Positions 4,040 through 63,942 are shown, counted from the first letter of the stretch. The stretch: 64,000 nt of DNA from an uncultured Gemmatimonadaceae bacterium (GCA_963790305.1 CAWBOC010000002.1:64001-128000), one strand, 5' to 3'. The notes: a model not told the origin generated them from the letters alone. Program-made: numbers and translations.

Positions 4040-5648
4040 AGAAGGTCTTTCGCGAGTAGTCGATCGCACAGTCGATCGTCACCGGGCGGCCTTCGCGCGT
4101 GATCTCGAGGGCGCGCGCAAGCACCGATTGGATCTCGGCGGAGTGACGAAGCTGCAGGCATTCGACGCCCACGCCGCGGCAGATCGCCTCGACGTCGTAG
4201 TCGCCGATGATGCTTGCCGTCTTCCGGTTCAGGGCGGTGTGCTGAAATTGCGCAATCTGCGCCAGCTCGCGGTCGCGCAGCACGACGACGACGACCGCTG
4301 CTCCCTGACTCGCCGCCGTCAGGAGCTCCAGCCCCGTCATGAGGAAGGCGCCGTCGCCCGCGAGCGCCACCACCGGCGCGCCGGGGCGCGCCAGCTTGGC
4401 GCCGATCGCCGCCGGCACCGCGTAGCCCATGCAGGAGTAGTCGATGGGACCGAGGAAGCGCCCGGGTGCATTCAGGCGCAGCATCTCCATGGCGATGAAC
4501 GTCCCATTGCCACTGTCGGTCGTGAAGATCGTCTCCTCGCCAAACGTTCGCTGGAGCGCTTCGAGGAGCGCGAAGGGCGGCACGCGACTGGTGTCGCCAG
4601 CGCCTAACCATTCCGTTCGCACGGCATCGTGACCTCGACGAATGCGCTCCCGGAGCCCGTCGTCGCGCGGGCGCTGGGTGAGTCGCCGCAGCAAGGACTC
4701 GACGAACCGGGCGGCGTCACTCTGAATCGCGAGCGCCGTCTTGTGATTGCGTCCGGGAACGCTGGCATCGATGTCGACGTGAATCAGTGGTCCCGGGGGC
4801 TCGAGCCCATAGCTCGCCGTCGCCACCTCGCCAAACCGGCATCCGATGGCGAGAGTTGCATCGCACTCGCGGGCGATCTCGCGGGCGAACGCCGGCGCGG
4901 CGGCGCCGAAACCGGGCCACAGGAAGAGCGGGTGCGTCTCGGGAACGACGCCCTTTCCTTGATAGGTCGTCGACACGGGCGACTCGAGTCGCTCGATGAG
5001 CTCGACCACTTTCGCGCTCGCGGCGCCCAACCCGAGATACACCAGCGGACGCTTCGCGCTATTGAGAATCGCGGCCGCTTGCGCGGTGTCCGCCTCGACG
5101 GCGGTCGCGGTGGGGACAAACGGCACTTCGTCGCTGACGTCGTGAGACAGCAGATAGAGCTCTGCCGGCACCTCCACGAACACCGGACCTGGCGCGCCCG
5201 CCCGTGCGATCTCGCACGCCTTACGAATCGTCGCGTACAGCTCGCGCGCGGTTCCCGGCCGGAACTGCGCCTTCGTGACCGGTGCGACCATCGCGGCCTG
5301 ATCGACGTCGTGCAGCTGAAACGCCCGCCCGGTGTCCCGACGAATCCCACAGCCGAGGACCAGCATTGGCACCGTGTCCATGAACGCTTCGGCGATGCCG
5401 GACATCGCATGTGTAAGTCCGGCGCCAGGCACCACGTTCACGCAGGCCATCCGCCCGGAGGCGCGCCATGCTCCGTCGGCCATGAACGACGCGCTCTGTT
5501 CGTCGGTGACGAGGATCGTGCGCACGCGCTTCGACTGGGCGAGCGCGTCGTACAATTCAATGTTGTGGGTGCCGGGAATGCCGAAGGCGAGCTCGATACC
5601 CTCATCCTCGAGCGCGCGCGCCACGAGGCGTCCGCCGATCTCAGCCAC
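3945..5648 (-). CDS. Thiamine pyrophosphate-binding enzyme (acetolactate synthase-like family)
   Basis: FGIPGTHN, DEQSASFMADG, GPVFVEVP and MGYAVPAAIGAK...GDGAFLMTG motifs. Confidence 0.9.
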   Translation of the reverse strand: MAEIGGRLVARALEDEGIELAFGIPGTHNIELYDALAQSKRVRTILVTDEQSASFMADGAWRASGRMACVNVVPGAGLTHAMSGIAEAFMDTVPMLVLGCGIRRDTGRAFQLHDVDQAAMVAPVTKAQFRPGTARELYATIRKACEIARAGAPGPVFVEVPAELYLLSHDVSDEVPFVPTATAVEADTAQAAAILNSAKRPLVYLGLGAASAKVVELIERLESPVSTTYQGKGVVPETHPLFLWPGFGAAAPAFAREIARECDATLAIGCRFGEVATASYGLEPPGPLIHVDIDASVPGRNHKTALAIQSDAARFVESLLRRLTQRPRDDGLRERIRRGHDAVRTEWLGAGDTSRVPPFALLEALQRTFGEETIFTTDSGNGTFIAMEMLRLNAPGRFLGPIDYSCMGYAVPAAIGAKLARPGAPVVALAGDGAFLMTGLELLTAASQGAAVVVVVLRDRELAQIAQFQHTALNRKTASIIGDYDVEAICRGVGVECLQLRHSAEIQSVLARALEITREGRPVTIDCAIDYSRKTFFTSGVVRTNFGRLPWRDRLRYAGRAILRRVF

Positions 5649-7827: not shown

Positions 7828-7843
7828 CGCTAAACTGTTAGGC

Positions 7844-8878
7844 TCAATGACAAACGCCACCGCCAGAATCGCGAGACGTACCGCCCTCGACCGGAATGAA
7901 AGACCACGCATACCGGTTGTTACCGAGCGCGAGTGCGAGCACGCCGTGCGTGTCGTTGATTCGCGCTTCGCTGTTCGGAAGAATGGTCGAAAACTCGTAA
8001 AACCCCGCGCCCCCGGTTCCGACGGTGAAGTGCCGAATGCCCCGTCGCGTATCGAGGTTCCCCTCGGGATCCTGCGGCGCGAACCGCTCGTAGAGATGGT
8101 CGTGTCCGGAGACGACGACGTCGACGCCTCTGGCGTACAGGATGTCCCAGAACTGCTGCATCTCGTATTGGCTCCCGTGCCGTCCGGAGCTGAAGCGCGG
8201 GTGGTGGAAGTACGCGATCGTGCACCGGGTTCGGTGGCGCGCGAGATCGGCGATGAGCCAGAGGCGTTGCGCGACGTCCCCAACGCAGGTGCGGCCATCC
8301 TCTGGAGAGGTTTTTGGCGGCGGGCAGGCGGACCACTGCGTCATGCTGTTCAACACGATGACGTGCCACCGGCCCAGGTCGTAGCTGTAGTAGCCGCCGG
8401 GCGGCGTACTCACCGGGAAGAAGTAGGCGAAGTAACCAGCGGCTCCCGGCGTCAGATACTCGTGGTTGCCGGGCGCCGGCCGCGTGCGCGCCTTGTGCCG
8501 GCCCCAGGTCGGCTCATAGCACAACAGATAATCCGACAGAGATCCGAACTCGTAGGCGTTGTCACCGACCGCCATGACGGTGCCCGGAATTCGGTCGAGT
8601 ATGCGCGCCGTCGATTCCGCTGGCGTTAGGTGTGGTGGCGTGATCTCGGCGGGATTCTCGGGGTCATAGCAGCGCGCAATGTCTCCCGCGCCGACCAGAA
8701 TTGGCGGTCCTCCTGGGGCGGCCCATGGATTCCGGGGCAGGTCGACGAGCCAACGGGCGAGATCGACGTCGGGGCTCTCTTCTGCGGGCGGTGCTGAAGG
8801 GGAATCGTTGCAGGCCGCGATGGCGAGTGCGCCAATCATCGCGGGAATGACGCCGCGAATTGGACGAAGGGCTCTCAT
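7844..8878 (-). CDS. Calcineurin-like metallophosphoesterase lipoprotein
   Basis: Lipobox AIAAC; GAGDIA, GDNAY, GNHEY, HHP and SGHDH motifs. Confidence 0.88.
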   Translation of the reverse strand: MRALRPIRGVIPAMIGALAIAACNDSPSAPPAEESPDVDLARWLVDLPRNPWAAPGGPPILVGAGDIARCYDPENPAEITPPHLTPAESTARILDRIPGTVMAVGDNAYEFGSLSDYLLCYEPTWGRHKARTRPAPGNHEYLTPGAAGYFAYFFPVSTPPGGYYSYDLGRWHVIVLNSMTQWSACPPPKTSPEDGRTCVGDVAQRLWLIADLARHRTRCTIAYFHHPRFSSGRHGSQYEMQQFWDILYARGVDVVVSGHDHLYERFAPQDPEGNLDTRRGIRHFTVGTGGAGFYEFSTILPNSEARINDTHGVLALALGNNRYAWSFIPVEGGTSRDSGGGVCH

Positions 8879-9048
8879 GCTGACGGTCCTCCTCTGCGTC
8901 AAAATGATCTCTGGCCAGGTCACTCGGCAAAAGGCCGGCCGCCCGGCGACGCAGAACCCGAAACCTCCAATCAAACCCTCCGGTACGTCCTAATGTCCCA
9001 TCCCTCGCGAGCCGAACTGGCCCGCTCAAACCGTCGCTCGGGGGAACA

Positions 9049-11974: not shown

Positions 11975-13341
<1,367 letters not shown>

Positions 13342-13400
13342 GTCCGGGAAGGTATTGCGGGGGTGGCGAGTGGGGGAGACGATGGTCTCCGACCGAAGCT

Positions 13401-15593: not shown

Positions 15594-15896
15594 TGGCGCA
15601 CCTCGTCGAGAGGAAGCTCTGCGGCCGCGGACTTCTGTTTTGGACATCGAAGGGGAGTCGCTCGCGAGCCCCAGCGGAGCAGGGGAGCTCGCTGCACACG
15701 GTGCGACCGGACGTCAGCAGACCGGGTTGCGCTGAATGACTCTTCCGGGCCTAGGATACGCCGGGAGCTCGAGCGACGCAACCACAAGGTATCCGGGACC
15801 ACCGGGGTCTCATCGGTCGTCGTTAGGGTGTTGTGGCGCCACACCTCCCTCGCCTAACGCCTCATTGTGACCGACCGGAACCTCCTCCGCCCGGGT

Positions 15897-19910: not shown

Positions 19911-19912
19911 CC

Positions 19913-24585: not shown

Positions 24586-24664
24586 GTCTAACGTGCGGTG
24601 CAGCCAACGAGCACATTAAGGAGGCGGCTTCGCCGCTTGGTTATTGGTGCTCGTGCGGTTAGGC
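24586..24664 (+). mobile_element. Degenerate integron attC-like site
   Basis: GTCTAAC (RYYYAAC) ... ACGAGCAC/GTGCTCGT stem ... GTTAGGC (GTTRRRY); the L' box appears to be missing. Confidence 0.5.
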
Positions 24665-35245: not shown

Positions 35246-35249
35246 GCGC

Positions 35250-44070: not shown

Positions 44071-44565
44071 ATGCTCGTCCTGCTCCGCCACGTGTTCGCG
44101 ATTCTCGTGCTGCCCGTCGTAATGGCCATCGTCGTTCCCAGCTGGCTGCTCACGCGATACGCCCTGGTTGATTCGCGATGGAGCGACGGCTCAGCGCTGA
44201 TGTGGCCAATGCGCGGGCTCGGCGCGATCCTCTTGCTCGCCGGATTTCTGCTATTCGCCTGGTGCGTGAGCCTGTTCGCGCGCGTGGGACAGGGGACGTT
44301 GGCGCCGTGGGATCCCACGCGACGCCTCGTCGCGGTCGGTCCCTACCGGTACATTCGCAACCCGATGATCACCGGCGTCGCGACCGTGCTGGCGGGATGG
44401 GCGGTCTTCACCGGATCGTGGGTGCTCGCCCTCTGGTTCCTCACCTTCGTCGCGTTCAATTCGGTGTACTTCGTGCTCGTGGAAGAGCCCGGGCTCGAGC
44501 ACCGGTTTGGCGCGCCCTACCGCGAATACAAGGCGCAGGTTCCCCGGTGGATTCCTCGCCGTTAG
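44071..44565 (+). CDS. Isoprenylcysteine carboxylmethyltransferase/PEMT family membrane protein
   Basis: GTLAPWDP, GPYRYIRNPM and EEP.L..RFG..Y..YK..VPRWIP motifs. Confidence 0.9.
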   Translation: MLVLLRHVFAILVLPVVMAIVVPSWLLTRYALVDSRWSDGSALMWPMRGLGAILLLAGFLLFAWCVSLFARVGQGTLAPWDPTRRLVAVGPYRYIRNPMITGVATVLAGWAVFTGSWVLALWFLTFVAFNSVYFVLVEEPGLEHRFGAPYREYKAQVPRWIPRR

Positions 44566-49663: not shown

Positions 49664-50074
49664 ATGGGGAAGATCGGACGAACCATTCTCGCGGTGCTGG
49701 CCGGCGCCATCGTGTGGGCGGTGCTGTGGGTCGGCGGAACGCAGGCCGCGCAACGGGCCTTTCCGGCCCTGCTCGCTGTGGGACAGCCCGTCACCAATGT
49801 CGGCGCGCTCGTCGGGCTCATCCTCTATAGCGTCGCGTTGTCCGTTCTCGCCGGGTACGTGACGGCAACGGTTGCGTCGAGGGAGCCCCTGCCGGCCGTG
49901 AGAGCGCTGGCGATTGTCCAGCTCGTGCTTGGCCTCGGGTTCGAGGTCTCGGCGTGGAGTCTCACGCCGGTGTGGTACCACCTCGTGTTCCTGGCGCTGA
50001 TCGTCCCGGCGACGATCTACGGAGGCCGGCTCCGCGTTAGGCGCGGCGGGGCTGCGGCGCTGCTGCCCGTGTAA
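49664..50074 (+). CDS. Small 4-TM membrane protein
   Basis: GAGG RBS; hydrophobic ORF with PVWYHLVFL motif. Confidence 0.78.
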   Translation: MGKIGRTILAVLAGAIVWAVLWVGGTQAAQRAFPALLAVGQPVTNVGALVGLILYSVALSVLAGYVTATVASREPLPAVRALAIVQLVLGLGFEVSAWSLTPVWYHLVFLALIVPATIYGGRLRVRRGGAAALLPV

Positions 50075-50335: not shown

Positions 50336-53300
50336 ATGCCGCATCGCGCTCGTCGATTTTCTGTGCATGCACTCGCCACGGCGCTCGCGCGCTTCTCGGC
50401 GGCGATGGCAACCGTCGCGGCCACGGCCACCTGTGATGGCGCCAACGTCCTCGGGCCCGTCGGTGTCAACGAGCTCGAGCTCGAGTGGCTCAGCGATACC
50501 CTCCTCTTCGTCGAGAGCCGAGTAGCGCCGGTCCTCCGCATAACGAGCGGCGGCGCCGCGGTGAGCGATTCCCGGGTCATCTTCACCAGCGACAATCCCG
50601 AGATCGTCGCCGTGTCGCCGGCCGGTGATTCGATTCATGCGCGACGCCTCGGCACGACCGAAATGACGATTCGCGTGCTCGGGTCGCTCTTTCCGGAAGA
50701 AGGCGAATCCTGGCGCCGAACGCTGCGAGTGGTGCTCAAGGATCTCCAGCTCGACCGGTCCCTCGTGGGCCTTACCAGCGTGGGCGACACCGCGACAATC
50801 CACGCGATGCCGTTAGGTGCGGACGATCAGATCATCAATGTCCCGGTGACGTGGCGGTCCCTCGACACCAACAGGGTCTCGGTGACCGACGGACGGCTCA
50901 CCGCGCGCGGCACCGGCGCGACCGAGGTCCAGGCCATCGTGGCGGGGGATACCGCTCGCGCGGCGGTGACCGTCGAGCAGCGCCTGTCGAGCTTCGTCCT
51001 CTCGCCGGAGGCCGCCACTCTGCGCAGCATCGGCGAAGAAGTGACCATCACCGCGACCCCCGTCGACAACAACGGGGCACCGGTGCCCGGGGTGACTCCG
51101 TTCTGGGAGAGCGGGGATGCCTCAGTGGCACGTGTCGATGACGCCGGGCGCGTCACCGCGATCGGCGGGGGCATAACAATGATTTACGCCTTCAAGGGTC
51201 CCGTGCGGTCGGGAGCGCGAGTGCAAGTCACGAACGACCCGGCCACGATCGCGATCGACCCGTCGGCGGACACCCTCACGAGGCCCGGCCAGCAGCTCGT
51301 CTACACGGCGGTCGTTCGCAACGCCCAGGGCGTGCCGATCGCCAACTATCCAACGGCCTGGCGCTCTGACAACCCCGCTGTCGCGTCCGTCACGGCCACG
51401 GGCACGGTCACATCCGTGGCGGCGGGCGCCGCGCGCATCATCGGCGAAGCAGGCACCATCGCCGATACGGTCGCGCTGGTGGTTCGCGACCTCACCGTGC
51501 TCCACGTCGACAACGCCTCCAATGCCCAGCCGCGCATCGGCACCCACGCCCGACCGTTCGCCACCATTCAGGCTGCGCTCGCCGACGCGACCTCGGGTGA
51601 CACGATCGCCCTGCGTCCGGGCAACCGACCGTATGCCGAGTCTCCGGCGCTCAGTGGACAAATCTCGCTGATCGGGAACGACTCCGCCTATCGAGCGAAT
51701 GGCAGCAACAACGCCGCCCTCCTCCCGACGATCTCGCACGAGACTGGTGCCGCCGCAATCGCCGTTTCCGCCGGGTCGTCGGTGTTGCTCCGCCATGTCG
51801 CCATCCGGCACATGGTCGATGGGCCAGCGATCGACGCCAATGGCGCCGGGGTGCGCATTGAGAACGTACACGTCAATCCTGGCCAGACGTCCAGAGTTGG
51901 TCGTGGTTTCCGCATTGCGAACGCCACGGGAGCGGTGATCAGCGATAGCCGCGTGAACGCCGTCGTCGGCTACGGGATACTGCTGTCGAACGTGAGCACT
52001 GGTCTCGTCTCACGCGTTCAGGTCGTTGGCGTCGATTCCGTCGCCGGAGCCAACGGTGAGGGAATTCGCGTCGTCCGCGGTTTTGGGAACGCCGTCGAGC
52101 TGAGCGCGGTCGCGTCGACGGCCGGACCACGCATCCTCCTCGACTCGACGTCTGGTGCCCGTGCTACCGGCGACACGCTGGCGGGCCGCCACCGCCTGCT
52201 GCGCGTTCGCGCTGCGACGGGCGCGACGGTGATCGCGAACAACGTGTTCTCGCTCAACCAGCAGGCGACCGATCCGCCCTCTGGCGGAAGCGCCGTGGAT
52301 GGACGCGCGGCGCTGGAGATTCTCGAGTCTGGCGGCGTGACGCTCAGCGGCAACTCGTTCGCCGAGGCGGGGAGTACGGCGATGGACGCGATTCGTCTCG
52401 TGGATGCGCGGGGTGCGGGGATAACGATCTCCGCGAGCCGGTTCAACGGCGGCAGATTCCATATCCGGTCGACGCGCTCGACCTGGGCGCTCAGCGGCTC
52501 CCTGCTCGAGAATGCGGTGCGCGCCATCGTCGCCGAAGAGGCGGACACGATCGCAATGACCTCCGATACCCTGCGCAGTGGGCAAGGTCGAGGGTGCGTC
52601 GACGTTCGCGGCTCGTCATCGATCTCCGTCATCGACGGCTGGCTCGCCAATTGTACGGCTGCGACGGCCGATACCGGGATGGCGGCGATCACGGTCGATG
52701 GATCGGGGGCGACACTGACGGTTCGCGGCACGCGCTTCACCGGCGCGAACGAGACCGCCATCGCGTTCACGGGTGCCGTGCTCACGGTGCAGAACGCGTC
52801 GCTCTCCGGCGCGGGCACCCGCACTGTCCCGACTCTCCGCTGGCCAGCGGCCATCACGGCCACCGCGAGCTCCGCCGACGTGACCGGGTCGAGCATCGTC
52901 GACTACCGGTTGCTCAATGGCGCATCGCTGCGGGCCGGGAGCGTTCGCTTCGAGGGGAATCGTGTCTGGCGTCAGCGGCGTGGCCTCGAGGTCGCGCAGT
53001 GGGTCACGGCCAGCATCGCGAACAACGACTTCGCCGACCATGAAGTGTCGGCGCTGGTGAACGCCGAGGCGGCGGTGCTCAGTGCCCAGCCTAACTGGTG
53101 GGGCGACGGGCGCGGTCCGCGTCGCTCCGTCGCGCCCGACGCGGTGGGTGATAGCGTCGTCGGCGCGGTCAACTTCGGCACCCCGGCGGCAGCGCCACAG
53201 TTCCCGGGCGCCGCAGCCTCGGAAGATTCGCTCCGGATCGTGCGCGGGAGCGGCCAATCGGCGTTGCGCGGAACGACGCTGCCGCAGCGCCTGACCGTTC

Positions 53301-53533
53301 GCGTGATGGACCAGCAGGGGCGCCCCGTGACTGGAGTGTCCGTGCGCTTCAGAATCCTCTCGGGAGGGGGAAGCCTCGAGGGCTCGAACCTTGTAGACCG
53401 CATCTCGAACGCCAGTGGCCTCTCCGAGGTGCAGATGACGTTAGGCAGCTCGGCCGGCACCGCTACCGTCGAGGCTGCCCAGGGCAACGGCAGCAAGCGG
53501 CGCGTCGTCACCTTCACCGTGACGAGCCAATGA
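50336..53533 (+). CDS. Large lipoprotein with tandem Ig-like (Big_2) domains, right-handed beta-helix and C-terminal Ig domain
   Basis: Signal ending ATATC; W.S.[DN]..VA.V...G.VTA repeats; GTHARPFATIQAAL; NWWG; start uncertain. Confidence 0.82.
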   Translation: MPHRARRFSVHALATALARFSAAMATVAATATCDGANVLGPVGVNELELEWLSDTLLFVESRVAPVLRITSGGAAVSDSRVIFTSDNPEIVAVSPAGDSIHARRLGTTEMTIRVLGSLFPEEGESWRRTLRVVLKDLQLDRSLVGLTSVGDTATIHAMPLGADDQIINVPVTWRSLDTNRVSVTDGRLTARGTGATEVQAIVAGDTARAAVTVEQRLSSFVLSPEAATLRSIGEEVTITATPVDNNGAPVPGVTPFWESGDASVARVDDAGRVTAIGGGITMIYAFKGPVRSGARVQVTNDPATIAIDPSADTLTRPGQQLVYTAVVRNAQGVPIANYPTAWRSDNPAVASVTATGTVTSVAAGAARIIGEAGTIADTVALVVRDLTVLHVDNASNAQPRIGTHARPFATIQAALADATSGDTIALRPGNRPYAESPALSGQISLIGNDSAYRANGSNNAALLPTISHETGAAAIAVSAGSSVLLRHVAIRHMVDGPAIDANGAGVRIENVHVNPGQTSRVGRGFRIANATGAVISDSRVNAVVGYGILLSNVSTGLVSRVQVVGVDSVAGANGEGIRVVRGFGNAVELSAVASTAGPRILLDSTSGARATGDTLAGRHRLLRVRAATGATVIANNVFSLNQQATDPPSGGSAVDGRAALEILESGGVTLSGNSFAEAGSTAMDAIRLVDARGAGITISASRFNGGRFHIRSTRSTWALSGSLLENAVRAIVAEEADTIAMTSDTLRSGQGRGCVDVRGSSSISVIDGWLANCTAATADTGMAAITVDGSGATLTVRGTRFTGANETAIAFTGAVLTVQNASLSGAGTRTVPTLRWPAAITATASSADVTGSSIVDYRLLNGASLRAGSVRFEGNRVWRQRRGLEVAQWVTASIANNDFADHEVSALVNAEAAVLSAQPNWWGDGRGPRRSVAPDAVGDSVVGAVNFGTPAAAPQFPGAAASEDSLRIVRGSGQSALRGTTLPQRLTVRVMDQQGRPVTGVSVRFRILSGGGSLEGSNLVDRISNASGLSEVQMTLGSSAGTATVEAAQGNGSKRRVVTFTVTSQ

Positions 53534-55081
53534 GCCAGTGCCAGCGCTGCGGCGCGGCGATCGCGCCGGGCTCACGCTTCTGCCCGAGCTGTGGGCGGCA
53601 GGTCCTCGATCCGGGTGCATCCACGCTCCTCGTTGGCCCTGCCAATGACGCACTGCTGGCGGAGGTGCGTCATGCCCTCTCCGGGGAGTACGACATCGAC
53701 CGCGAGGTCGGCCGCGGCGCCATGGCGATCGTCTACCGTGGAACGGAAGCCGGTCTCGGACGCCGCGTTGCCCTCAAGGTCCTCCCTCCCGAGATGACCC
53801 TGAACCGGGAGCTCACCGAGCGCTTCAAGCGCGAGGCGCGCCTGGCTGCCTCGCTCGAGCATCCCAACATCATCCCCGTGTATCGGGAAGGGCAGGCGGG
53901 TCGGTTCCTGTTCATGGCGATGAAGTTCATCGAGGGCCGCTCCCTCGAGGACATCATCGCGTCGCAGGGCCCACTGCCGGTGCCTGTCGTGCTCCACGTC
54001 CTGCGGGCAGCGACGAGCGCGCTGGCGTACGCGCACGAGCGCGGCATTGTCCACCGCGACATCAAGAGCGCCAACATCCTCGTCGATCGCGACGGCCGCG
54101 TGGTGGTCAGCGACTTCGGAATCGCTCGCGCCGCCGAGGATGCGAGTCTCACCTCGACCGGGACGATGGTCGGGACGCCGTATTTCATGAGTCCTGAGCA
54201 ATGCGCCGCACGACGCATCGGGCCACAGAGCGATCAGTACTCGTTAGGGGTCGTCGCCTTTCGAGATGCTCACCGGGAGCGTGCCCTTCCAGGCCGAGTC
54301 GCTGCCGGGGATCATGCATCACCACTTCTACACGCAGGTGCCCGACGTCACGACCGCGCGTCTCGACGTCCCGCTGCCGCTGCGTGAGCTGATCGACCGC
54401 GCACTCGCGAAAAAGCCCGAGAATCGCTTTGCCTCCACGCATGCGATGCTCGCGGCCGTCGAGGCGGTTCCGTTCGTGGAAGAGGGTCGGCGCGAGGGGC
54501 TCGCACACCTTCGCGATCTCGCGCATGGTGCGCCGATTCCCGTCGTCGGCATCTCCGCACTGCCGCAGCTCGCGAGCTCGATCCGTCTCACGCCCCCGCA
54601 GCACGCGCCCGCGATACAGCCGCGCGCGGCGGCCCTCTCGAAGTGGGCCATCGTGTTGATCGCCGCGACGGTGTTGGGCGCCGGTGGGGCCGCCGCGGTC
54701 GTCCTGCGGCGACCTCCCGCACCCGTGCCGGTTCCGACTGCGGTGGTGGTCGCGCCGGAGATGACGCCACGCATCGAGCGACCGCAGGCGGCCACGCCCC
54801 CTCCCGTCGATTCGACGCGGCGCGTCGCCGAGGCACCGGCAGTCGAGTCGAAGGCGGTGGGCCGCTTGCGCGTGCGCGCCTTCCCCGCCGATGCAGAAAT
54901 CCGAGTCGACGGGCAACTGCTCGGACGTGGCGTCGTCCTCGATTCCACCGTTCGAATCGGCTCCCGGCGGCTGCGCGTTTCGGCGCCGGGCTACAAGTCG
55001 TTCGACACCACGGTCACCGTCGTGGCCGATGAGATCACCGCGCTCGCTCGCATCGCACTGCCGACACAGGACCCCGAGTGA
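53530..55081 (+). CDS. Hanks-type Ser/Thr kinase (zinc ribbon, kinase, TM, PEGA); 1-bp frameshift near 54260
   Basis: CQRC..CPSC, GRGAMA, VALKV, HRDIKSAN, DFGIA, GTPYFMSPEQ; the second frame continues EMLTG.VPF...KPENRF and a PEGA-like end. Confidence 0.9.
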
Positions 55082-56127: not shown

Positions 56128-56768
56128 GGACGCGCTGGTGGTTCTGGTTGATGTCCCTTGCCTGTGCCGGGCCGCTTCGCGCGCAGATCCCGGTGACGAC
56201 CGGAGTGTCCGTCTCGCTGGCCGAGCATCGGGTGACGGCGGGCGCAGGGCTCGAGCGGTCGTCAGGCACGATGTTCGGGCTGTGGGCAACGACGACGGTC
56301 CCATGGCAAGCCGTCGAGGCGCGTGCCTCGCTCCGGGCCGGGTCGTTAGGGGCCAACGAGCGCTCGGCCATCGATCGAGACGTGGGCGAAGTGAGCCTGG
56401 GCGCCAGCATTCCGGTGAGCGACTGGCTTGGCCTCGACGCCGGCGTGGTCGTTCGGCGATACGAATCGGCGCTCGCCGCCCAGCGGTGGGTGTGGGGTGA
56501 AGTCGGGATTCATGGCCGCCGGTCGATGCTCGAGGATGCCCTGAAGCTTTCGGCGGGACTGTCGATCATGCCCTGGGTGAGCGTGAGCGGGATCTCCCGC
56601 CCCGATCTCGCCGTGGCTGCGCACAGCGCGGTCGGCTACACCGCCGGCCGGCTGACCGCAACGATTCGCTACGGCCTGGAGCGATTCGATTTCCCCGCGC
56701 GCAACGATGTGCGACGACTCGAGGAGCTCTCATCCCTCGAGCTCGGCGTGGCCTGGAAGATTCGCTGA
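56124..56768 (+). CDS. Putative small outer membrane beta-barrel protein
   Basis: Signal peptide, alternating beta-strand pattern and C-terminal LELGVAWKIR. Confidence 0.65.
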   Translation: MRTRWWFWLMSLACAGPLRAQIPVTTGVSVSLAEHRVTAGAGLERSSGTMFGLWATTTVPWQAVEARASLRAGSLGANERSAIDRDVGEVSLGASIPVSDWLGLDAGVVVRRYESALAAQRWVWGEVGIHGRRSMLEDALKLSAGLSIMPWVSVSGISRPDLAVAAHSAVGYTAGRLTATIRYGLERFDFPARNDVRRLEELSSLELGVAWKIR

Positions 56769-56806: not shown

Positions 56807-59752
56807 ATGGCGACCGTCTTCCACGCCGTCCCCGAGCCCACCTCGGTGCCCGGCGCGCCCTCCCCATCGCTTTCCCAACGTGAGGCCATCGAGGCGGCGC
56901 CCGGACCCCTGCTCGTTCTTGCAGGCCCGGGTGCCGGAAAGACGTACTGCCTCATCGAGCGCATTCGCTTTCTCATCGAAGAGTGCGACGTCCCGCCCCC
57001 GCGCATCTGCGCCTTCACCTTCACCAACAAGGCCGCGGACGAGATCACGCACCGCCTCGAGCGCGCGTTAGGCGACGACGGGGCGCCGGTGAGGTCGGGG
57101 ACGATTCACGCCTTCTGCGCCGAGCTGCTCCGGGAGTATGCGGCGCGCGTGGGACTGCCGCCGGGGTTCGGGATCGCTGACGAGGACTATCAGCTCAACG
57201 TCCTGCGTCGCCTCGAGGGCCCGAAGCCATGGCATCGGCGGCTCCTCACCGAGTTCAGCGCCAACCGATTTCGGGGCGCGGCATTCGCGCGACACGAGAG
57301 CCACGAGCTCTTCGATCGCTACGAGCGATTTCTCGCGCAGCGAAAGATGGTGGACTTCGACATGCTCGTGCTCAAGGCGGCCGAGCTGCTCGAGCACACG
57401 CCCGAAGCGAAGACGATTCGCTCCCGCTGGGATGTGGTGCTCGTCGACGAATTTCAGGATCTGAACCCGGTCCAGTACCGCGTCATTCGCGAGCTCGCGC
57501 GCGATCACGAGCATCTCTTCGCCGTGGGCGATCACGAGCAGTCGATCTACTCGTTCGCGGGGGCCGATCCGGGCGTCTTCCAAAGACTGCTCAACGACTT
57601 TGGGCTGGCGAGGAAGATCCGCCTCGAGGAAAATCGCCGTTGCCCCCGGGATGTCTTTGCGTTGGCTCGGCGCCTCGTGTCGATGAACCCTCAGATGTTC
57701 GCCGACCTGCCCCCGCCGCAGGCGAACCGCGCGTCACCCCATCAACCCAGCGCGCTTTCCTTCGCCACCGACGACGCGGAGCGTGCCTGGATCGTCGACG
57801 ACGTTCGCCGGGACCAGGCCGAGTGGATGCATGACTGGGCCGAAGTGGCGCTCCTCTACCGCACGAACGAAATGGGAGAGGCACTGGAAGGGGCCTTTCT
57901 CAACGCGGGCATTCCGTGCCGTCTGGCGCGCGGGCGCGCGCTGGCCGAGGACCCCGTCGTCGCGTATGTGATCGCCGCGCTGCGGGTCATCGCGTATCCG
58001 AACGACCCGCTCCATTGCGAGGCCTTCTTCGAGGCAGTGCTGTCGCGGGTGCTCTTCGATCAGGCTCGGGTGCGGGCCGACGAGACGCGGCAGGACCTGA
58101 TCCGACAGCTCTACCACATTGCTGCGCACGTGTCCCGCGCTGGTGAGGACGGGCGCCAGGTGCATCGTGCGCTCTCGCACTGGAGAAACTTGCAGGCCAT
58201 CGGCTGTCGCCACTCGTCGTTAGGCCCGCTCATCCACGATCTCCTGTCCCAGCGTGTGGGGCAGAGGCGCTCGGTCCTCGAGGAACGGCATGACGAGCTG
58301 AGCGATCCGATCGAGCAGCCCGACGTCGTGTCGCTCGCCGATCGCCTTCGCGACGCGCGCGAGCGGCACGCAGCGATCTGCCTTCCCGACCTGCACGGCG
58401 TCGAGATCCCGCTCAAGGCCATCCTGCTCGGTCTCGGCTTCGGTGAGGTGTACACGGGGAACGTGGTCATGCCGCGATCGGAGCGCATCTCCCCGCACGA
58501 GTGCAAGACGCTCGGCCTGCCGTTAGGGCTGTTCAAGGCCGCCCAGCTTCTGGAGAGCCGAGCATTCGGCGAGCCATTCCGGAACTTCATTGCGTTCGAT
58601 CTGGAGACGACCAGCAATGACCCGGAGATCGCCGAGATCGTGGAGATCGCGGCGGTGCGCGTGAGGAACGGCAAGCCATGCGAGACGTTCAACGCGCTGG
58701 TGAAGCCTCGCGGTCCGATACCGCGTCAAGCCACCGAGATCCATGGGCTGCGTGACGCCGACGTCGAGGGCGCTTCGCGCTTCGAGGACGTGTGGCCACA
58801 GTTCCGTCGCTTCTGCGGCAGCGACGTCGTGGCCGCCCACAATGGCTACGAGTTCGACTTCCAGGTTCTCAAACGCATGGTGAAGGAGCTGGGCGGGCGA
58901 TTCGACCTGTGCATGTACGACACGCTCCCGCTCTCGTGCGATCTCCTGTCTACGAGCCACAAGCTGATCAACCTCGCGCGTGTATTCGGCATCGATCCAG
59001 GACGCTCGCACCGTGCACTCGACGACTCCCGTACTCTGGCGCAGGTCGTCATTAAGCTCGATGAGGCCAAGCTTGCGCGCTCGCGAAAAAGCGCGTTGCT
59101 CAACCTCTTGGGCCATCTCGGCGTCGCGCTTGCGCTGTGCGACCAGCAAACCCTCTGCGCCGAGGCTGCCCTCTTCCGCGATTTCGCCCGACCCTTCGCG
59201 CTAGGGCGATATAGCGGCAGTCTGGAGTTCTACGAGAACGAGGCGGCGGACAACGAGTCCGTTCCGAGCGTCGACGAGGTCATCGAGGCACTCGGCGGAG
59301 CGAAGCTCATGATGAAGATCCGCGCCGAGAAGACGGCGGAGGAGATGTATCCGAGTGCGCTGCTGCGGCTGCGCCGGTTGATCGAGCGGATTCCCGACGG
59401 AACGCTGCAGGCGCAGATCGTGACATTTCTCGAGTGCGCGGTTCTCTCGAAGTTTGATGGGCACGAGCCCGAGCGTGGCCGAGTCAACCTGCTCACGCTC
59501 CATTCCACGAAGGGGCTCGAGTTCTCACGCGTGTACATCGTCGGTTCGGAAGACGCGCACCTTCCCGGCCGCACCGCGAGCCGTGAGGCGACACCCGAGG
59601 AGGTCGAAGAGGCGCGGCGGCTGCTGTACGTGGGCATGACCCGCGCGAAAGACCGCATCGTGCTGACGCACACGCAGTCGCGCGCGGGCCGGCCTGGCGG
59701 TGGACATCGTTTTCTCGACGAGATGGGCCTGGCGCCGAGGACCATGGCCTGA
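56807..59752 (+). CDS. UvrD/PcrA-like SF1 helicase with internal DEDDh (DnaQ-like) 3'-5' exonuclease domain
   Basis: AGPGAGKT, DEFQD, VGDHEQSIY, TLHSTKGLEF and EARRLLYVGMTRAK; internal FDLETT, AHNGYEFD and HRALDD. Confidence 0.92.
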   Translation: MATVFHAVPEPTSVPGAPSPSLSQREAIEAAPGPLLVLAGPGAGKTYCLIERIRFLIEECDVPPPRICAFTFTNKAADEITHRLERALGDDGAPVRSGTIHAFCAELLREYAARVGLPPGFGIADEDYQLNVLRRLEGPKPWHRRLLTEFSANRFRGAAFARHESHELFDRYERFLAQRKMVDFDMLVLKAAELLEHTPEAKTIRSRWDVVLVDEFQDLNPVQYRVIRELARDHEHLFAVGDHEQSIYSFAGADPGVFQRLLNDFGLARKIRLEENRRCPRDVFALARRLVSMNPQMFADLPPPQANRASPHQPSALSFATDDAERAWIVDDVRRDQAEWMHDWAEVALLYRTNEMGEALEGAFLNAGIPCRLARGRALAEDPVVAYVIAALRVIAYPNDPLHCEAFFEAVLSRVLFDQARVRADETRQDLIRQLYHIAAHVSRAGEDGRQVHRALSHWRNLQAIGCRHSSLGPLIHDLLSQRVGQRRSVLEERHDELSDPIEQPDVVSLADRLRDARERHAAICLPDLHGVEIPLKAILLGLGFGEVYTGNVVMPRSERISPHECKTLGLPLGLFKAAQLLESRAFGEPFRNFIAFDLETTSNDPEIAEIVEIAAVRVRNGKPCETFNALVKPRGPIPRQATEIHGLRDADVEGASRFEDVWPQFRRFCGSDVVAAHNGYEFDFQVLKRMVKELGGRFDLCMYDTLPLSCDLLSTSHKLINLARVFGIDPGRSHRALDDSRTLAQVVIKLDEAKLARSRKSALLNLLGHLGVALALCDQQTLCAEAALFRDFARPFALGRYSGSLEFYENEAADNESVPSVDEVIEALGGAKLMMKIRAEKTAEEMYPSALLRLRRLIERIPDGTLQAQIVTFLECAVLSKFDGHEPERGRVNLLTLHSTKGLEFSRVYIVGSEDAHLPGRTASREATPEEVEEARRLLYVGMTRAKDRIVLTHTQSRAGRPGGGHRFLDEMGLAPRTMA

Positions 59753-60411
59753 TGTGGCGCGTTGGCGTCGGGGATGAGGAGGTGACCGCCGAGCATGATT
59801 CGGCGAGCTCACCGATCGTCTTCGTGTGCGCGCATGGGGCCGGCGGCAACATGGCCGATCGCGGTGTCCTCTCGGTATCGCAGGTGATGCGTGCGCAGGG
59901 CATGGACGTCGTTCGCTTCAACTTTCTGTACAAGGAGAGGCGCAGCGGGCGTCCCGACGCGATGCCCCTGCTCAAGGCCACGGTCGAGGCGGTGGTGGCG
60001 CGCACTCGCGAAGAGCTTCGACCCGACGTCGTGATTATCGGTGGGCGATCGATGGGCGGACGAGCGGCATCCATGCTCGCCGCGGATGGCTTCGCCTGCG
60101 ACGGTCTCCTCCTGCTCGCGTACCCGCTGCACCCCGCGGGAAAGCCCGATCAGCTTCGCGACGCGCATCTCCCAAGGGTCGAGGCGCCTGTACTCTGTCT
60201 CAACGGTACGCGCGATGCACTGTGCAGACGCGACCTCATGGACGCCGTACTGCAGCGCGTGGGCCCGAACTGGACGATGCACTGGCTCGACGGTGCCGAC
60301 CACAGCTTTCACGTTCTCAAGTCATCGGGGAGAACGGACGCCGAGGTGCTGGCGGAGATAGGGGAGACGAGCCGGGAGTGGGTGGAGCGGCTGGCGCGCG
60401 TCCACCGTTAG
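59752..60411 (+). CDS. Alpha/beta hydrolase (KANSL3/Abhydrolase_11-like)
   Basis: AHGAG, GGRSMGGR, YPLHPAGK, GTRD and DHSF motifs. Confidence 0.9.
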   Translation: MWRVGVGDEEVTAEHDSASSPIVFVCAHGAGGNMADRGVLSVSQVMRAQGMDVVRFNFLYKERRSGRPDAMPLLKATVEAVVARTREELRPDVVIIGGRSMGGRAASMLAADGFACDGLLLLAYPLHPAGKPDQLRDAHLPRVEAPVLCLNGTRDALCRRDLMDAVLQRVGPNWTMHWLDGADHSFHVLKSSGRTDAEVLAEIGETSREWVERLARVHR

Positions 60412-60783
60412 GCCCAGCGCGGCGGCAGGCACGGGCCCGCCGGGCACCAGGGTCCGGCTCCCGAGATCGATGCGCAGGTTGAGCCCGTCGAGCGAGCGGG
60501 CACCGAGCAGGACGAGGTCACCTCGCGCCGCGAAGACGACCAGGTCCGGCGCTGATGCTCCGGCGACATGGATGTTCGCGAAGCCCACCCCGCGCTCGAT
60601 CTCCCGTCCATCGGCGGTCACGAAGTCGACGAGGCGCTCGGGAACGAGCCCGATCGACTCGAGCACGGGCTGCGGCACCCAGGTGTACTCGCTTCCCGTG
60701 TCGACGATGACATCCGAGAGCTCGACCACGGTGCCACGCCGGGCCGGATGCTCGATCGCGATGGTCGTTCGCAGAATGCCCAT
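60322..60783 (-). CDS. Clan AA (retropepsin-like) aspartyl protease
   Basis: VDTGSEYTW and LLGARSLDGLNL motifs. Confidence 0.82.
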   Translation of the reverse strand: MGILRTTIAIEHPARRGTVVELSDVIVDTGSEYTWVPQPVLESIGLVPERLVDFVTADGREIERGVGFANIHVAGASAPDLVVFAARGDLVLLGARSLDGLNLRIDLGSRTLVPGGPVPAAALGLTVDARQPLHPLPARLPYLRQHLGVRSPR

Positions 60784-60842
60784 CGCGTCGAGCATACGGT
60801 CTTCGCCGCCGAGTGCGGCATCGAACTAGCGCGTGGCGTCTC

Positions 60843-62261
60843 TTATCGTGCCGTCCCCACCCCGGGAGCATAGAGCGACCGGAGGCGCTGTGCCCGAAAG
60901 ACGTATCCCGCATTGCCCTGGATGCTCCACGTCAGACGACCCTGGGCGTCGTACTCCTCCACTCGGCCCTCCGTACCGAAGGAAACGAGAGTGCGTCCAC
61001 CCGCGAGCGGCTGAACACTTCCACCGATTTGCGTCGTGACCCCCGGAGTGGACCCGTACGAGTGCGACAGTCGCACCGTGCGCGCCGTCTCGCTCACGAC
61101 ATAGCGCTCGGCTCGGGACTCCGAAGGATTTCCAATGTTGTCGAGAATGACGAACGTGCTGCCGCCGGCGATCCGCACCCCATGTTGATGCGCAAACGCC
61201 GGTGCGGGCGTGTCGAGGAAGGTGAACTGGTTGCGGCGGCCACCGAGCCGCCATAGCACCGCCCCGGTGCGCGTGTCGATTTTCGTGATCTCGCTCAGGT
61301 TCCGAAACGACACGAGCAGGCTGCCGTCGGTATCGAGATCGATCGCGTTGCCGTGCGTCCAGTTGACGGTTGCGCCTCGGCGTTCCGCCTCATCGACGTC
61401 GGTGATGGCGAAGTGGTCGAACGGGCTCCACTCGAACAGGAGTGCGCCATCGGCAGCGATGTGCTGGACGACGGTTCCCGTGACGCGCGCCGCCGCGAGG
61501 CCGCCGTAGGGTGTGAGGTCCACGGTGCGCGACTCGTCGCACATGATCCAGTAGCTCCCATCGGGCAGACTGATCAGATCATGGAGACGTGACGAGAGGT
61601 TGCGCGCGCAACCAAGCGTCCGGGTCACACGGCCTAACGGGTCGATCTCGACCCACGGCTCCAGATCTCCGGGGGCGGGTGTCGGCGGCCTCGCGGTGTA
61701 GCGGCCGTTGGGCTGCGCCATGAAGCTCAGCCCGGCGCCGGTCGAGAATCGGTGATACCAGACGACTCGGCCGTCATTGTCGATGACGACGCCGTACATG
61801 CCGGCCGCGAAGACGACGTACCCCGGTGCGGGATCGGCGCCACCCGCGGTGTAAACAGGGAGATCGGACGGGAGCGCGCCCGTCGTCAGGCTCACCGGTT
61901 CGCCGACCGTCACACCCCCGCTGCCATACGCAACCGGTCGGAGGCGATAGTGCTGCGCGGGCCGAAGTCTCAAGATAGGGATCGAGACCGTGTCACCATC
62001 GACTGCGACCGCGGCTGTCACGCTGTCGTCCAACGCGGGCTCGAGCCGCACGACGACGCTATCGGCGTTACGAGCGCGCACCGACATCGCAGCGGTGAGC
62101 ACGTTATGCGTGCTTGCTCGCGCGACGGCCGACTCGATCAGCGGAGCGGGGGCGCGCTCGGGCCCGGCCGGTGCGTCCGAGCATCCGGCCAGCACCCCGG
62201 CGGTGAGAAGCAGCGCCCAGCGCCCCTGGCGCCTAGGGCTTCCAGACCGCGCTGCGTCCAT
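60843..62261 (-). CDS. Arylsulfotransferase (ASST) family lipoprotein
   Basis: Lipobox VLAGC; LHDL, WTHGNAI, LVSFRN, WRLGG and FAHQHG motifs; start uncertain. Confidence 0.82.
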   Translation of the reverse strand: MDAARSGSPRRQGRWALLLTAGVLAGCSDAPAGPERAPAPLIESAVARASTHNVLTAAMSVRARNADSVVVRLEPALDDSVTAAVAVDGDTVSIPILRLRPAQHYRLRPVAYGSGGVTVGEPVSLTTGALPSDLPVYTAGGADPAPGYVVFAAGMYGVVIDNDGRVVWYHRFSTGAGLSFMAQPNGRYTARPPTPAPGDLEPWVEIDPLGRVTRTLGCARNLSSRLHDLISLPDGSYWIMCDESRTVDLTPYGGLAAARVTGTVVQHIAADGALLFEWSPFDHFAITDVDEAERRGATVNWTHGNAIDLDTDGSLLVSFRNLSEITKIDTRTGAVLWRLGGRRNQFTFLDTPAPAFAHQHGVRIAGGSTFVILDNIGNPSESRAERYVVSETARTVRLSHSYGSTPGVTTQIGGSVQPLAGGRTLVSFGTEGRVEEYDAQGRLTWSIQGNAGYVFRAQRLRSLYAPGVGTAR

Positions 62262-63942
62262 CGGGAGTGACCCGCTGCAATACCGCGCCCTGGATATCGA
62301 CTGCCCATATCGCCGGCATGTCGCAGTAGTAGTAGTACCCGCACGACTGCTTGGTGAACGAGATGGTCTGCCCATCGGTGAGCCACGCCGGGTCGCTGTG
62401 GAACGAGTAGGTTTGCCAGCCGGTGGCAAGCCGTCTCTGGTTCGTTCCATCGGCGTTCATGACGAAAATGTCGTGGGTACAGCCATAGTAGCATTCGACC
62501 TCGCGCGTGAAAGCGATCATCGAGCCGTCAGGCGACCATGCTGGCGCCGCTTCCGCCGAATCGTTCTGGGTGAGACGAACGACGTTCGAGCCGTCCGCGT
62601 TCATCACATAGATCTCACCGGCAGGATGGTCGCGCGTACTCACGAAGGCGATCTTGCCAGTACTCGACCACGTCGGATTGATGTCGTCGGCATCGTTGGT
62701 GGTCAGCTGGGCCAACCCGGTACCGTCGGGGTTGATGACGTGGATCTCCCAGTTGACGGTCCGGTAGCTCTGGAAGGCGATCTTCTGTCCGTCCGGAGAC
62801 CAGGTGGGCGACTCATCGCCGCCGGCGCTGGTCGTGAGGCGTGTCGCGTTCGTTCCATCCTCGTCCATGACGTAGAGCTCAGGGTCGCCGGAGTGTCGGA
62901 GCGTCGTAAACGCGATCCGACCGGTCGAGGACCAGGCGGGCTCCCAGTCGACGTTTGGCGTCGTCGTCAGACGCACAAGGCCGGTGCCGTCCGAGCCCAT
63001 GATGTGGATGTCGTCGTCCCTCACGAATGCGAGGAGCCGAGGTGCTTCGCACGAGATCGCGAACGCCGCCTGGGCGGTGGCACCAGGATCCACAGCGAGC
63101 GTGTGAGCAGCGGCGCCGGCCACGCGGCAATTCGCGCTCAACCCCTGGATGCTGACTGTGTAATCAGGAGCGGGCCGCAGGCGCTCGAACGTCGCGGATG
63201 CGTTCGAGCCGACGGGAAGCGTTGCGGAGGACTCCAGACTTGGCGACCGCAGGTCGAGGGTGTACCCATCCGGGTCCGTGCCCCCACCTGACGTGGCGAC
63301 TGTCACCGCCAGATTGCCGAACCTGACGCAAACGATGGAGAACGCAACGTCCGCTGTGGCACCGATCGGCACGGTGGCGACGGCCGTCTGTGCGCCCGTG
63401 ATCGTGCAGTTGGTTGCGACGCCGTTGAGTGCAACCGTATGACTCCCTTCGCGAACCCCAGCGATCGTTGTCGTTCCGTTGACCGGAACAGCCTGATTGG
63501 GTACTCCGCCTATGACGGCGACGTAGCCGTCGGGGTCGAGGTCTGCTCCGGTGGTCACGGTCGTCAGGCGCACACTCCCCACACGCGCTGTGCACGCGAG
63601 CACGAACGTGATAACCGCGATCTGGTTGCGCTCCACCCTGACCTGTCGCGGGTTCGTGCTGGTGACCTGGCAATTCACGCTCATCCCCTCGAGCTCCACC
63701 TCGTAGGTGCCTGGGGCGAGATCCGGAATCCAGATCTGGAGGCGCCCCGAGTCCACTCGATGCACCGGCCCATTCGCGACGGTGATCTGCAGGTTTTGGG
63801 TGATGACATCCTGGCCGGATGGGAGAATCAGGACCTCGATGGCGCCGAAGTTGGGAGGTTCCGCCGGGTTGTCGCACGCTCCGGCGAGGATGAGCAGCGC
63901 AGCACCTAACGCCGTGGCGACGGGTCTGGACCAGGCTCGCAT
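62233..63942 (-). CDS. Lipoprotein with Ig-like repeats and TolB-like PD40 propeller
   Basis: Lipobox LAGAC; repeated TTG.D.DPDGY/NC.V modules; P.WSPDG/WSSTG and IYVMNADG repeats. Confidence 0.85.
   Translation of the reverse strand: MRAWSRPVATALGAALLILAGACDNPAEPPNFGAIEVLILPSGQDVITQNLQITVANGPVHRVDSGRLQIWIPDLAPGTYEVELEGMSVNCQVTSTNPRQVRVERNQIAVITFVLACTARVGSVRLTTVTTGADLDPDGYVAVIGGVPNQAVPVNGTTTIAGVREGSHTVALNGVATNCTITGAQTAVATVPIGATADVAFSIVCVRFGNLAVTVATSGGGTDPDGYTLDLRSPSLESSATLPVGSNASATFERLRPAPDYTVSIQGLSANCRVAGAAAHTLAVDPGATAQAAFAISCEAPRLLAFVRDDDIHIMGSDGTGLVRLTTTPNVDWEPAWSSTGRIAFTTLRHSGDPELYVMDEDGTNATRLTTSAGGDESPTWSPDGQKIAFQSYRTVNWEIHVINPDGTGLAQLTTNDADDINPTWSSTGKIAFVSTRDHPAGEIYVMNADGSNVVRLTQNDSAEAAPAWSPDGSMIAFTREVECYYGCTHDIFVMNADGTNQRRLATGWQTYSFHSDPAWLTDGQTISFTKQSCGYYYYCDMPAIWAVDIQGAVLQRVTPDGRSAVWKP

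Follow-up and report, generated by a model that had tools for sequence, protein, structure and literature searches.

A dispersed 8-mer identical to an integron R' end in the genomes of some Gemmatimonadales: a tentative candidate for a DNA-transfer tag

We analysed a 64,000-nucleotide stretch of DNA from an uncultured Gemmatimonadaceae bacterium (the window, which is positions 64001-128000 of contig C2 of the 4.31 Mb assembly GCA_963790305.1, here G000; 66% GC, 13 contigs, 94.3% completeness), and found that a short non-palindromic word with the core GTTAGG, in its full form CGTTAGGC, occurs throughout the window and the genome in large excess, is written into genes through rare codons, and is patchily distributed within a single order of Gemmatimonadota. 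These results point to a fixation bias that acts per DNA segment, rather than to effects of translation or biased mutation or to a polar signal for replication or segregation, because of the size of the excess, gain by substitution, scaling with cost, maintenance in relatives, equal orientations, excess in non-coding DNA and mutual repulsion of the copies. We tentatively favour, with confidence somewhat short of even, the reading that CGTTAGGC is a genome-wide tag kept by transfer-biased molecular drive, of the type of the DNA uptake sequences (DUS) of Neisseriaceae and the uptake signal sequences (USS) of Pasteurellaceae.

A pattern search revealed 31 copies of GTTAGG/CCTAAC in the window (21 on the plus strand, 10 on the minus strand), against 6.68 ± 2.73 (maximum 14) in 100 dinucleotide-preserving shuffles, none of which reached 31. 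The preliminary description, made from the window by eye, had listed 30 copies, and all 30 coordinates were correct, with one further copy missed (53090-53095, minus strand); its caution that the raw hexamer count was only modestly above expectation understated the signal. CGTTAGG accounted for 26 of the 31 copies, GTTAGGC for 22, and the full CGTTAGGC for 17. TTAG and CTAA together numbered 52, with 31 inside the motif and 21 outside, precisely the number that had been estimated. The excess held genome-wide when k-mers were compared with a maximal-order Markov model, as had been proposed: TTAGG was the top over-represented 5-mer of G000 (1741 vs 715.5, z = 38), with totals of 2900 for TTAG, 1547 for GTTAGG and 855 for CGTTAGGC, the last against about 68 under a dinucleotide model, and all 13 contigs carried copies. 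In a logo of the 1547 copies, C stood at 79% at position -1 and at 71% at position +6; since information was near zero outside positions -1 to +6, and the commonest 18-mer was found just twice, CGTTAGGC is a bare 8-mer rather than a longer dispersed repeat. A longer repeat, a repetitive extragenic palindrome (REP) or a miniature inverted-repeat transposable element (MITE) was ruled out by the same logo, with no conservation or pairing of the flanks past the core. The end letters were looser in G000, where T or G was also tolerated at the last position.

Codon choice within genes was investigated with 3208 G000 genes, called with a simple codon-score caller; since these calls span just 79.5% of the genome, some copies described below as spacer copies may be genic. 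Against 30 within-gene synonymous-codon shuffles, we observed 1061 genic copies of GTTAGG (221 ± 10 expected) and 640 of CGTTAGGC (39 ± 6 expected, a 16-fold excess), and the anticipated preference for TTA ahead of glycine was borne out: the share of TTA among Leu codons was 5.7% ahead of Gly, 3.2% ahead of Cys and 0.1-1.4% ahead of most remaining residues, while GGC came next after 428 of 1069 TTA codons. The fraction of each dipeptide written as the word scales with the cost of writing it, being 14% for Pro-Asn (240/1715), 5.6% for Leu-Gly (537/9584), 2.9% for Leu-Thr (193/6635) and 1.0% for Val-Arg (91/8947). Furthermore, 111 of 3205 stop codons lay within the word (53 TAG, 58 TAA), with a sharp peak at gene ends, and motif density was 0.55 per kb outside gene calls vs 0.31 per kb within them. 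Density showed no dependence on the codon adaptation of the gene, and tRNAs for TTA, CTA and AGG are all encoded in G000. Within the window, 18 of the 31 copies lay in called genes, as 11 Leu(TTA)-Gly, four Leu(CTA)-Thr, two Pro-Asn and one Val-Arg, and four further copies (12977, 19598, 35249 and 44561) contained a stop codon; these frames differ somewhat from the earlier ones, which placed about 23 copies in coding sequences.

We then compared orthologous positions among relatives, using 25 aligned orthologues of the helicase/exonuclease gene at 56807-59752 (row L014 of the alignment is a wrong ORF). The encoded protein is a 981-aa fusion of a UvrD/PcrA-type helicase and a DEDD (DnaQ-like) exonuclease domain, with full-length matches in 25 of the 41 related genomes searched. 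In the column at 57067, TTA-GGC was present in all nine genomes of the genus, whose proteins are merely 56-87% identical, and the other 16 rows had CTC, CTG, CTA, CTT or TTG (Leu, mostly CTC/CTG) or GTG (Val) before Gly. The column at 58522 carried the word in G000, G004 and, independently, G016, and another column of this gene carried it in G002, G007, G003 and G016. The motif columns of this gene were Leu-Gly in most of the 25 genomes, with TTA-GGN confined to motif-rich ones; because the Leu-Gly residues are found in rich and poor genomes alike, the word was written by synonymous double substitution. The same Leu-Gly residues rule out an origin by insertion or by decay of Ser codons. Across the window, G004 retained 15 of 22 aligned copies and G008 about 14 of 20 (one on an alignment gap), against a background hexamer identity of 34-35%, and in the reverse comparison 14 of 16 aligned G004 copies and 14 of 14 G008 copies were common to the window. 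The copies are maintained above background in this comparison of orthologous positions, which had been proposed. The proposal of a DNA-level signal was likewise upheld, by copies that occur in either orientation and in various reading frames as well as in stop codons and spacers, and by the independent rewriting of the same columns in different genera. The 31 copies of the window are as follows, with the coordinates of the six-base core, the strand and the 8-letter form.

4603..4608, minus strand, GGTTAGGC: outside the gene calls; conserved in G004.
7837..7842, plus strand, TGTTAGGC: spacer; kept in G004, ATTAGG in G008.
8625..8630, plus strand, CGTTAGGT: antisense in gene 7844-8974 (minus), CTA-ACG (Leu-Thr); kept in G004 and G008.
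12977..12982, plus strand, CGTTAGGA: holds the TAG stop of ORF 12553-12981 (plus); GTCAGG in G004, kept in G008.
13208..13213, plus strand, CGTTAGGG: spacer; absent in G004 and G008.
15822..15827, plus strand, CGTTAGGG: spacer; opposite-strand copy 31 bases on.
15853..15858, minus strand, CGTTAGGC: spacer; in one of the four convergent pairs within 60 bases in the genome.
19598..19603, plus strand, CGTTAGGC: holds the TAG stop of the SusC/RagA-type gene 16864-19602.
20713..20718, plus strand, CGTTAGGC: GCG-TTA-GGC (Ala-Leu-Gly) in gene 19913-21325.
24658..24663, plus strand, GGTTAGGC: spacer.
25670..25675, minus strand, CGTTAGGC: antisense in gene 25164-26483, CTA-ACG (Leu-Thr); kept in G004 and G008.
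26321..26326, plus strand, CGTTAGGC: GCG-TTA-GGC in gene 25164-26483; kept in G004 and G008.
27832..27837, plus strand, CGTTAGGC: outside the gene calls.
31665..31670, minus strand, CGTTAGGC: antisense in gene 30538-32016, CTA-ACG.
33075..33080, plus strand, GGTTAGGC: TGG-TTA-GGC (Trp-Leu-Gly) in gene 32056-34149; kept in G004 and G008.
35249..35254, minus strand, CGTTAGGC: holds the TAG stop of the histidine-kinase gene 35250-37649 (minus).
40296..40301, minus strand, CGTTAGGC: ACG-TTA-GGC in the peptidase gene 39503-41872 (minus); kept in G004 and G008.
43627..43632, minus strand, CGTTAGGC: antisense in gene 42892-44049, CCT-AAC (Pro-Asn); GTTCGG in G004 and G008.
44561..44566, plus strand, CGTTAGGC: holds the TAG stop of 44071-44565 (plus) and the TAA stop of 44562-46121 (minus), convergent genes.
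50036..50041, plus strand, CGTTAGGC: GTT-AGG (Val-Arg) in ORF 49178-50074; kept in G004 and G005.
50812..50817, plus strand, CGTTAGGT: CCG-TTA-GGT in gene 50288-53533; CGTTAGGC in G004 and G008, CTCGGG in G005.
53090..53095, minus strand, AGTTAGGC: antisense in gene 50288-53533, CCT-AAC; GTTCGG in G004, G008 and G005.
53440..53445, plus strand, CGTTAGGC: ACG-TTA-GGC in gene 50288-53533; kept in G004 and G008, CTCGGG in G005.
54243..54248, plus strand, CGTTAGGG: spacer.
56345..56350, plus strand, CGTTAGGG: TCG-TTA-GGG in gene 56124-56768; kept in G004, G008 and G005.
57067..57072, plus strand, CGTTAGGC: GCG-TTA-GGC in the UvrD-like helicase/exonuclease gene 56807-59752; TTA-GGC in all nine genus genomes.
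58219..58224, plus strand, CGTTAGGC: TCG-TTA-GGC; in G000 only, CTC-GGC in the closest relatives.
58522..58527, plus strand, CGTTAGGG: CCG-TTA-GGG; also in G004, with the independent gain in G016.
60407..60412, plus strand, CGTTAGGC: antisense in gene 60322-60795 (minus), CTA-ACG; kept in G004, G008 and G005.
61633..61638, minus strand, CGTTAGGC: outside the gene calls.
63905..63910, minus strand, CGTTAGGT: GCG-TTA-GGT in gene 62233-63963 (minus).

An 11.8-kb segment of the window (13382-25161) has no counterpart in the syntenic regions of G004 and G008. It has normal motif density and holds the SusC/RagA-type receptor gene, which is consistent with membership of Gemmatimonadota; the segment reflects either a deletion in G004/G008 or a gain from another motif-rich relative. 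No other Rfam RNA was found in the window at the gathering score. Further words are over-used in G000, namely AGGCGCT (2137 vs 1395), TCAGGAGT (333 vs 160) and AGGAGTCA (292 vs 142); AGCGCCT is also the top 7-mer of G010 and may be a family-wide signal.

The orientation of the copies bears on a polar signal for RecBCD/AddAB or FtsK, resembling Chi or the FtsK-orienting polar sequences (KOPS), which shares with the word an over-represented 8-mer at kilobase spacing; the G000 density of one copy per 5 kb is within the range of E. coli Chi, and the 21:10 ratio of the window would fit. The strand skew about origin and terminus that the preliminary description had raised (21:9) was not upheld: the 21:10 skew of the window was not significant (binomial p = 0.07), the strand counts of G000 were 751 forward to 796 reverse, contig C5 had 79:87 copies before its GC-skew switch and 94:105 after it, and no consistent polarity was seen in 400 kb sampled from the motif-rich genome G302. 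Neighbouring copies in G000 had the same orientation 776 times and opposite orientations 758 times. Known Chi sites show a far smaller excess, and the G000 word, unlike Chi or KOPS, is not co-oriented with replication and is written through rare codons. Because replication-strand polarity is lacking, a Chi- or KOPS-type role is disfavoured, and we consider it highly improbable.

Spacing was compared with 300 simulations, in which the same numbers of sites were drawn among the same dipeptide classes and non-coding positions. Gaps below 100 bases were strongly depleted (17 observed vs 55.7 ± 7.3 simulated, z = -5.3), as were gaps of 100-200 bases (29 vs 52.9, z = -3.4) and 200-400 bases (68 vs 102.3, z = -3.6); gaps of 800-3200 bases were enriched (z = +4 to +5), and gaps above 6400 bases were again depleted (125 vs 154.9, z = -3.8). 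The copies thus show mutual repulsion at a range of a few hundred bases, and deserts are fewer than expected by chance. The short-range depletion was also observed in the 400 kb of G302, and no regional clustering on the chromosome was found in G000. Pairs of copies within 60 bases numbered just 11 in G000, four of them convergent, which rules out terminator-like inverted pairs. The longest motif-free stretch, 30 kb at C13:206819-237005, is a sugar-nucleotide/glycosyltransferase cluster with 63.2% GC and a third-position GC (GC3) of 0.744 vs 0.80 for the genome; it contains a large ORF in which a weak, sub-threshold TIR-domain match is fused to mannose-1-phosphate guanylyltransferase/isomerase domains.

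We investigated the distribution of the word in 301 sampled Gemmatimonadota genomes, 12 of which carried at least twice the count of a reversed control word; all 12 belong to the same order, and none of 102 genomes outside it came close to this level. All nine genomes of the genus of G000 held 382-1006 copies of CGTTAGGC, most other relatives held 6-60, and the reversed control word occurred 100-440 times per genome in relatives. The highest counts were 6360 in G016, 4469 in G302, 4141 in G295 and 3896 in G239; within genus g44, G295 and G239 have about 4000 copies and G291 has 66. An RpoB tree of 26 genomes (of 30; G012 and G018 had no match, and G009, partial, and G296, with an in-frame stop, were left out) required at least six rich/poor changes among 22 labelled rows, four of them forced by well-supported branches, and 100 of 500 label shuffles needed as few changes. 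Among the rows tallied, the unpublished genomes G015, G084, G123 and G202 are all motif-poor. Since the trait is scattered inside a single order of Gemmatimonadota, the earlier term "lineage-specific" applies to the confinement to that order and not to the pattern inside it, with at least six gains or losses among the 22 labelled genomes.

The form of the word was stricter in G302, with C at 87% at position -1, C at 98% at +6 and R at +7 (YGTTAGGC), and 348 of 382 TTAG lay inside the word in the 400 kb sampled. Beside the word itself, strong enrichment there was confined to TGTTAGGC. CGTTATGC, present in 253 copies in G000 (3.7 times the dinucleotide model), had none in the 400 kb of G302, a contrast that suggests a slightly different tolerance of the reader between lineages. 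No alternative dispersed 8-mer (a "dialect") was found in two poor relatives, G291 (227 kb) and G010 (400 kb). The top words of the G291 sample belong to tandem (GCAGAAA)n arrays, often followed by GTGAAC, with 8-mers at 67-78 vs 3-7 expected.

The sharp specificity in G302, in particular the C at +6, together with the even spacing, the scarcity of very long gaps and the lack of strand preference, would fit the binding site of an abundant intracellular protein of the rich lineages (nucleoid, segregation or loop-anchoring), selected for chromosome organisation. We consider this decidedly unlikely: a single structural role sits poorly with densities that range from one copy per 5 kb in G000 to one per 0.8 kb in G016, thousands of codon-overriding sites would be hard to keep by per-site selection, and regional clustering is absent, whole genera go without the word and no candidate protein was found.

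Alternatively, the word could have arisen as a side effect of context-specific mutation or of biased repair of the Dcm/Vsr type, or of nickase-biased gene conversion. Consistent with this, the distribution is patchy, as if prone to horizontal transfer like that of restriction-modification genes, and the position-4 neighbours CGTNAGGC are mildly enriched in G000. The 94.3%-complete G000, however, gave no match to Vsr (PF03852), to a C5 methylase (PF00145) or to an N4/N6 beta-class methylase. It encodes an Eco57I/MmeI-like methylase (1021 aa, C7:233022-236087) that adjoins an SNF2 helicase (region C7:233022-238370); of 66 genomes of the order, 64 carry this methylase, whose identity follows the phylogeny, and 26, both rich and poor, carry a D12 methylase. 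Such breadth and phylogeny-tracking of the Eco57I/MmeI-like gene is unusual for a restriction-type gene. The methylation origin suggested earlier was thus not supported, with the two adenine methylases of G000 failing to track the trait. C-to-T decay of TCA is not the source, because the orthologous residues are Leu and not Ser, and CTC to TTA takes two changes; moreover, independent mutation predicts random spacing, and repulsion is observed. We regard a mutational or repair by-product as very unlikely. The HIP1 palindrome of cyanobacteria, a lineage-restricted, hyper-abundant genic 8-mer with no settled function, is similar in being lineage-restricted, abundant and genic; the G000 word differs in being non-palindromic, and none of the tested methylases follows the trait.

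The word coincides with an integron box. The earlier observation that GTTAGGC equals the integron core GTTRRRY holds and becomes sharper, with the extra 5' C matching too: CGTTAGGC is the R' end, 5' C included, of 23 classical attC sites that we extracted from G027:C95, which run from the inverse core [G][CT]CTAAC to CGTTAGGC. These belong to a large cassette array (G027:C95:1-24000) with one attC sequence type and a conserved stem. TGTTAGGC, the second most enriched form of the word (32 vs 1.3 in G302, 115 vs 24 in G000), is the complement of the attC inverse core and its usual next base. Where a genome is motif-poor, its few 8-mers lie clustered on the same strand, about 550 bases apart, and similar same-strand clusters adjoin intI matches in G027:C80 and G025:C26. 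G000 itself has a single intI location (C9:694912-695922, 449 bits to TIGR02249 with a cut-off of 265), after which come some 30 kb of small ORFs with low scores (C9:694912-726000). The repeat of this array, of about 60 bases, has a variable central heptamer (GTTAGGG, GTCTAAGG and others) and not the 8-mer; it could not be parsed as a classical attC, and a G027-type attC profile gave no match on G000 at E<0.001 (nhmmer).

Working integron sites, that is, R boxes of the integrase IntI serving as insertion sites of the double-stranded genomic attG type, as cassette-making boundaries or as integrase-titrating decoys, therefore have to be weighed. Apart from the identity of the letters, this explanation draws on the presence of IntI over cut-off in 45 of 66 genomes of the order and on the insertion of cassettes by integrases at double-stranded genomic sites, as reported in bioRxiv 10.1101/2022.09.11.507474; the attG consensus given there is just GWT, which needs no long word. 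IntI presence does not track the trait: rich and poor genomes have it alike, including many poor ones (G291, G009, G010 and G011 among them), and it was not found in the rich G130 (99% complete), G012, G022 and G005, with a fragment only in G016 despite its 6360 copies. Nor are the genomic copies attC sites, a candidate ruled out by the lack of flanking conservation and of an inverse-core partner excess: the inverse core lay 35-140 bases upstream of 69 of 1546 G000 copies vs 61 of 1546 downstream (control), compared with 46 of 53 upstream vs 2 downstream in the G027 array. Neither of two inspected indel borders relative to G004/G008 fell at a copy. Public data offered soil-metagenome contigs of relatives, with 5-13% of the sampled words, and no raw reads; in four runs compared at 90% likeness, none of the 15 joints listed (of 30) fell at a copy and contig ends did not pile up, a result uninformative either way since the contigs come from relatives. 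Per-site selection on thousands of decoy or landing sites would also be extremely weak, and the array repeat of G000 carries other heptamers than the 8-mer. In sum, the copies share with attC/attI and attG the core letters GTTRRRY including the preceding C, in a genome that has an intI gene; unlike attC, they lack the inverse core and hairpin, lie outside intI-adjacent arrays, spread over all 13 contigs, and sit in conserved codons without insertion, and unlike attG, for which published sites need GWT only, the word is 8 letters long. We consider a role as working integron sites unlikely.

Under the transfer-biased drive that we tentatively favour, some step of between-cell DNA transfer would prefer word-bearing fragments. 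The best candidate step would be uptake in natural transformation, as for DUS and USS, although a packaging or mobilisation bias would be equivalent. Word-bearing alleles would be transferred and recombined in more often, and the word would spread by point substitution at cheap sites: CCT-AAC, TTA-GGC, CTA-ACG, TAG/TAA stops and spacers. One copy per few hundred bases would suffice, which would account for the even spacing, and copies would decay to a very low background once the determinant was lost, which would account for the patchy distribution. We infer a bias at uptake or transfer and a sequence-specific receptor. The earlier list of possible functions (recombination, uptake, methylation or protein binding) is narrowed by the evidence towards uptake or transfer bias, with methylation and a polar Chi- or KOPS-type signal no longer favoured.

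DUS and USS are family-wide with dialects, and the DUS receptor of Neisseriaceae is ComP; to our knowledge, uptake-type tags are established in these two proteobacterial families only. The word resembles them as a short non-palindromic sequence whose copies number hundreds to thousands, run in either orientation without polarity, are denser outside genes yet mostly genic, were gained by substitution, are unclustered and are common to related species. It differs in belonging to another phylum with no known competence and no receptor found, in its scattered presence inside a single order, where the word is the same throughout and the two poor genomes sampled had no dialect, in having few terminator-like inverted pairs (the four convergent ones), and in its coincidence with the integron box. 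Hallmarks of uptake sequences, as set out in PMC1939737, are that orientation is unbiased, that non-coding DNA is enriched in them although ORFs hold many copies, that they are gained through point mutation and that one site is bound per fragment. By this likeness, the word may work as DUS and USS do, and is a candidate member of this class only.

Several points weigh against the uptake-type tag. The same exact word recurs in scattered lineages, unlike the family-wide dialects of DUS and USS, and the identity with the integron R' box is left unaccounted for by uptake. The even spacing and the absence of polarity would be compatible with a binding site inside the cell as well. We know of no naturally transformable member of Gemmatimonadota, and a literature search on natural transformation or competence in the phylum gave nothing relevant by title or abstract. 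Among the DNA-import parts of G000 are ComEC, four PilT-family ATPases and four secretins, and the ComEA model TIGR00426 had no match there. By phyletic pattern in 50-66 chosen genomes, ComEC occurred in 50 of 50 and secretins in 49 of the 50, whether rich or poor, a ComEA-like helix-hairpin-helix (HhH) protein was present in 25 of 66, unrelated to the trait, and no trait-tracking determinant was found among IntI, the Eco57I/MmeI-like and D12 methylases, secretins, ComEC and the ComEA-like protein. Two of the secretin genes of G000 (C3:186336-186845 and C11:42842-43351) have identical scores and ORF lengths, sit close to the ends of contigs, and probably represent either a single repeat that was assembled twice or a recent duplication.

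A functional coupling between tag and integron is a further reading, which we hold to be doubtful; in it, the R box would serve as the self-DNA transfer tag of motif-rich Gemmatimonadales. The machinery favouring CGTTAGGC would then also favour every cassette, each of which ends in the word, and IntI would harvest the incoming single strands; alternatively, an IntI-derived binding module would be the reader of the tag. Transformation is reported to supply the chromosomal integron of Vibrio cholerae with cassettes (PMC12614218), and this report, together with the double-stranded insertion of cassettes, makes the link conceivable. Judged by titles and abstracts, we found no published description of the word or of uptake sequences in Gemmatimonadota, and nothing on the word in the literature on integrons and attC of this phylum.

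The word distorts codon usage to the extent that half of the TTA codons of G000 exist for it; work on codon bias, horizontal transfer or attC prediction in these genomes should therefore mask it. Its identity with the integron box makes the long-standing question of cassette recruitment and exchange among chromosomal integrons testable. If the transfer-tag reading is true, the word would be a ready marker for gene flow in soil metagenomes, and rich and poor relatives would form a natural on/off series for a receptor search, such as genus g44 (about 4000, about 4000 and 66 copies). If the coupled reading is true, CGTTAGGC would be the first tag of the uptake type outside Proteobacteria, and would for the first time link a genome-wide word with the capture of cassettes. 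A third independent transfer tag, in an abundant and poorly cultured soil phylum, would mean that such drives are more widespread.

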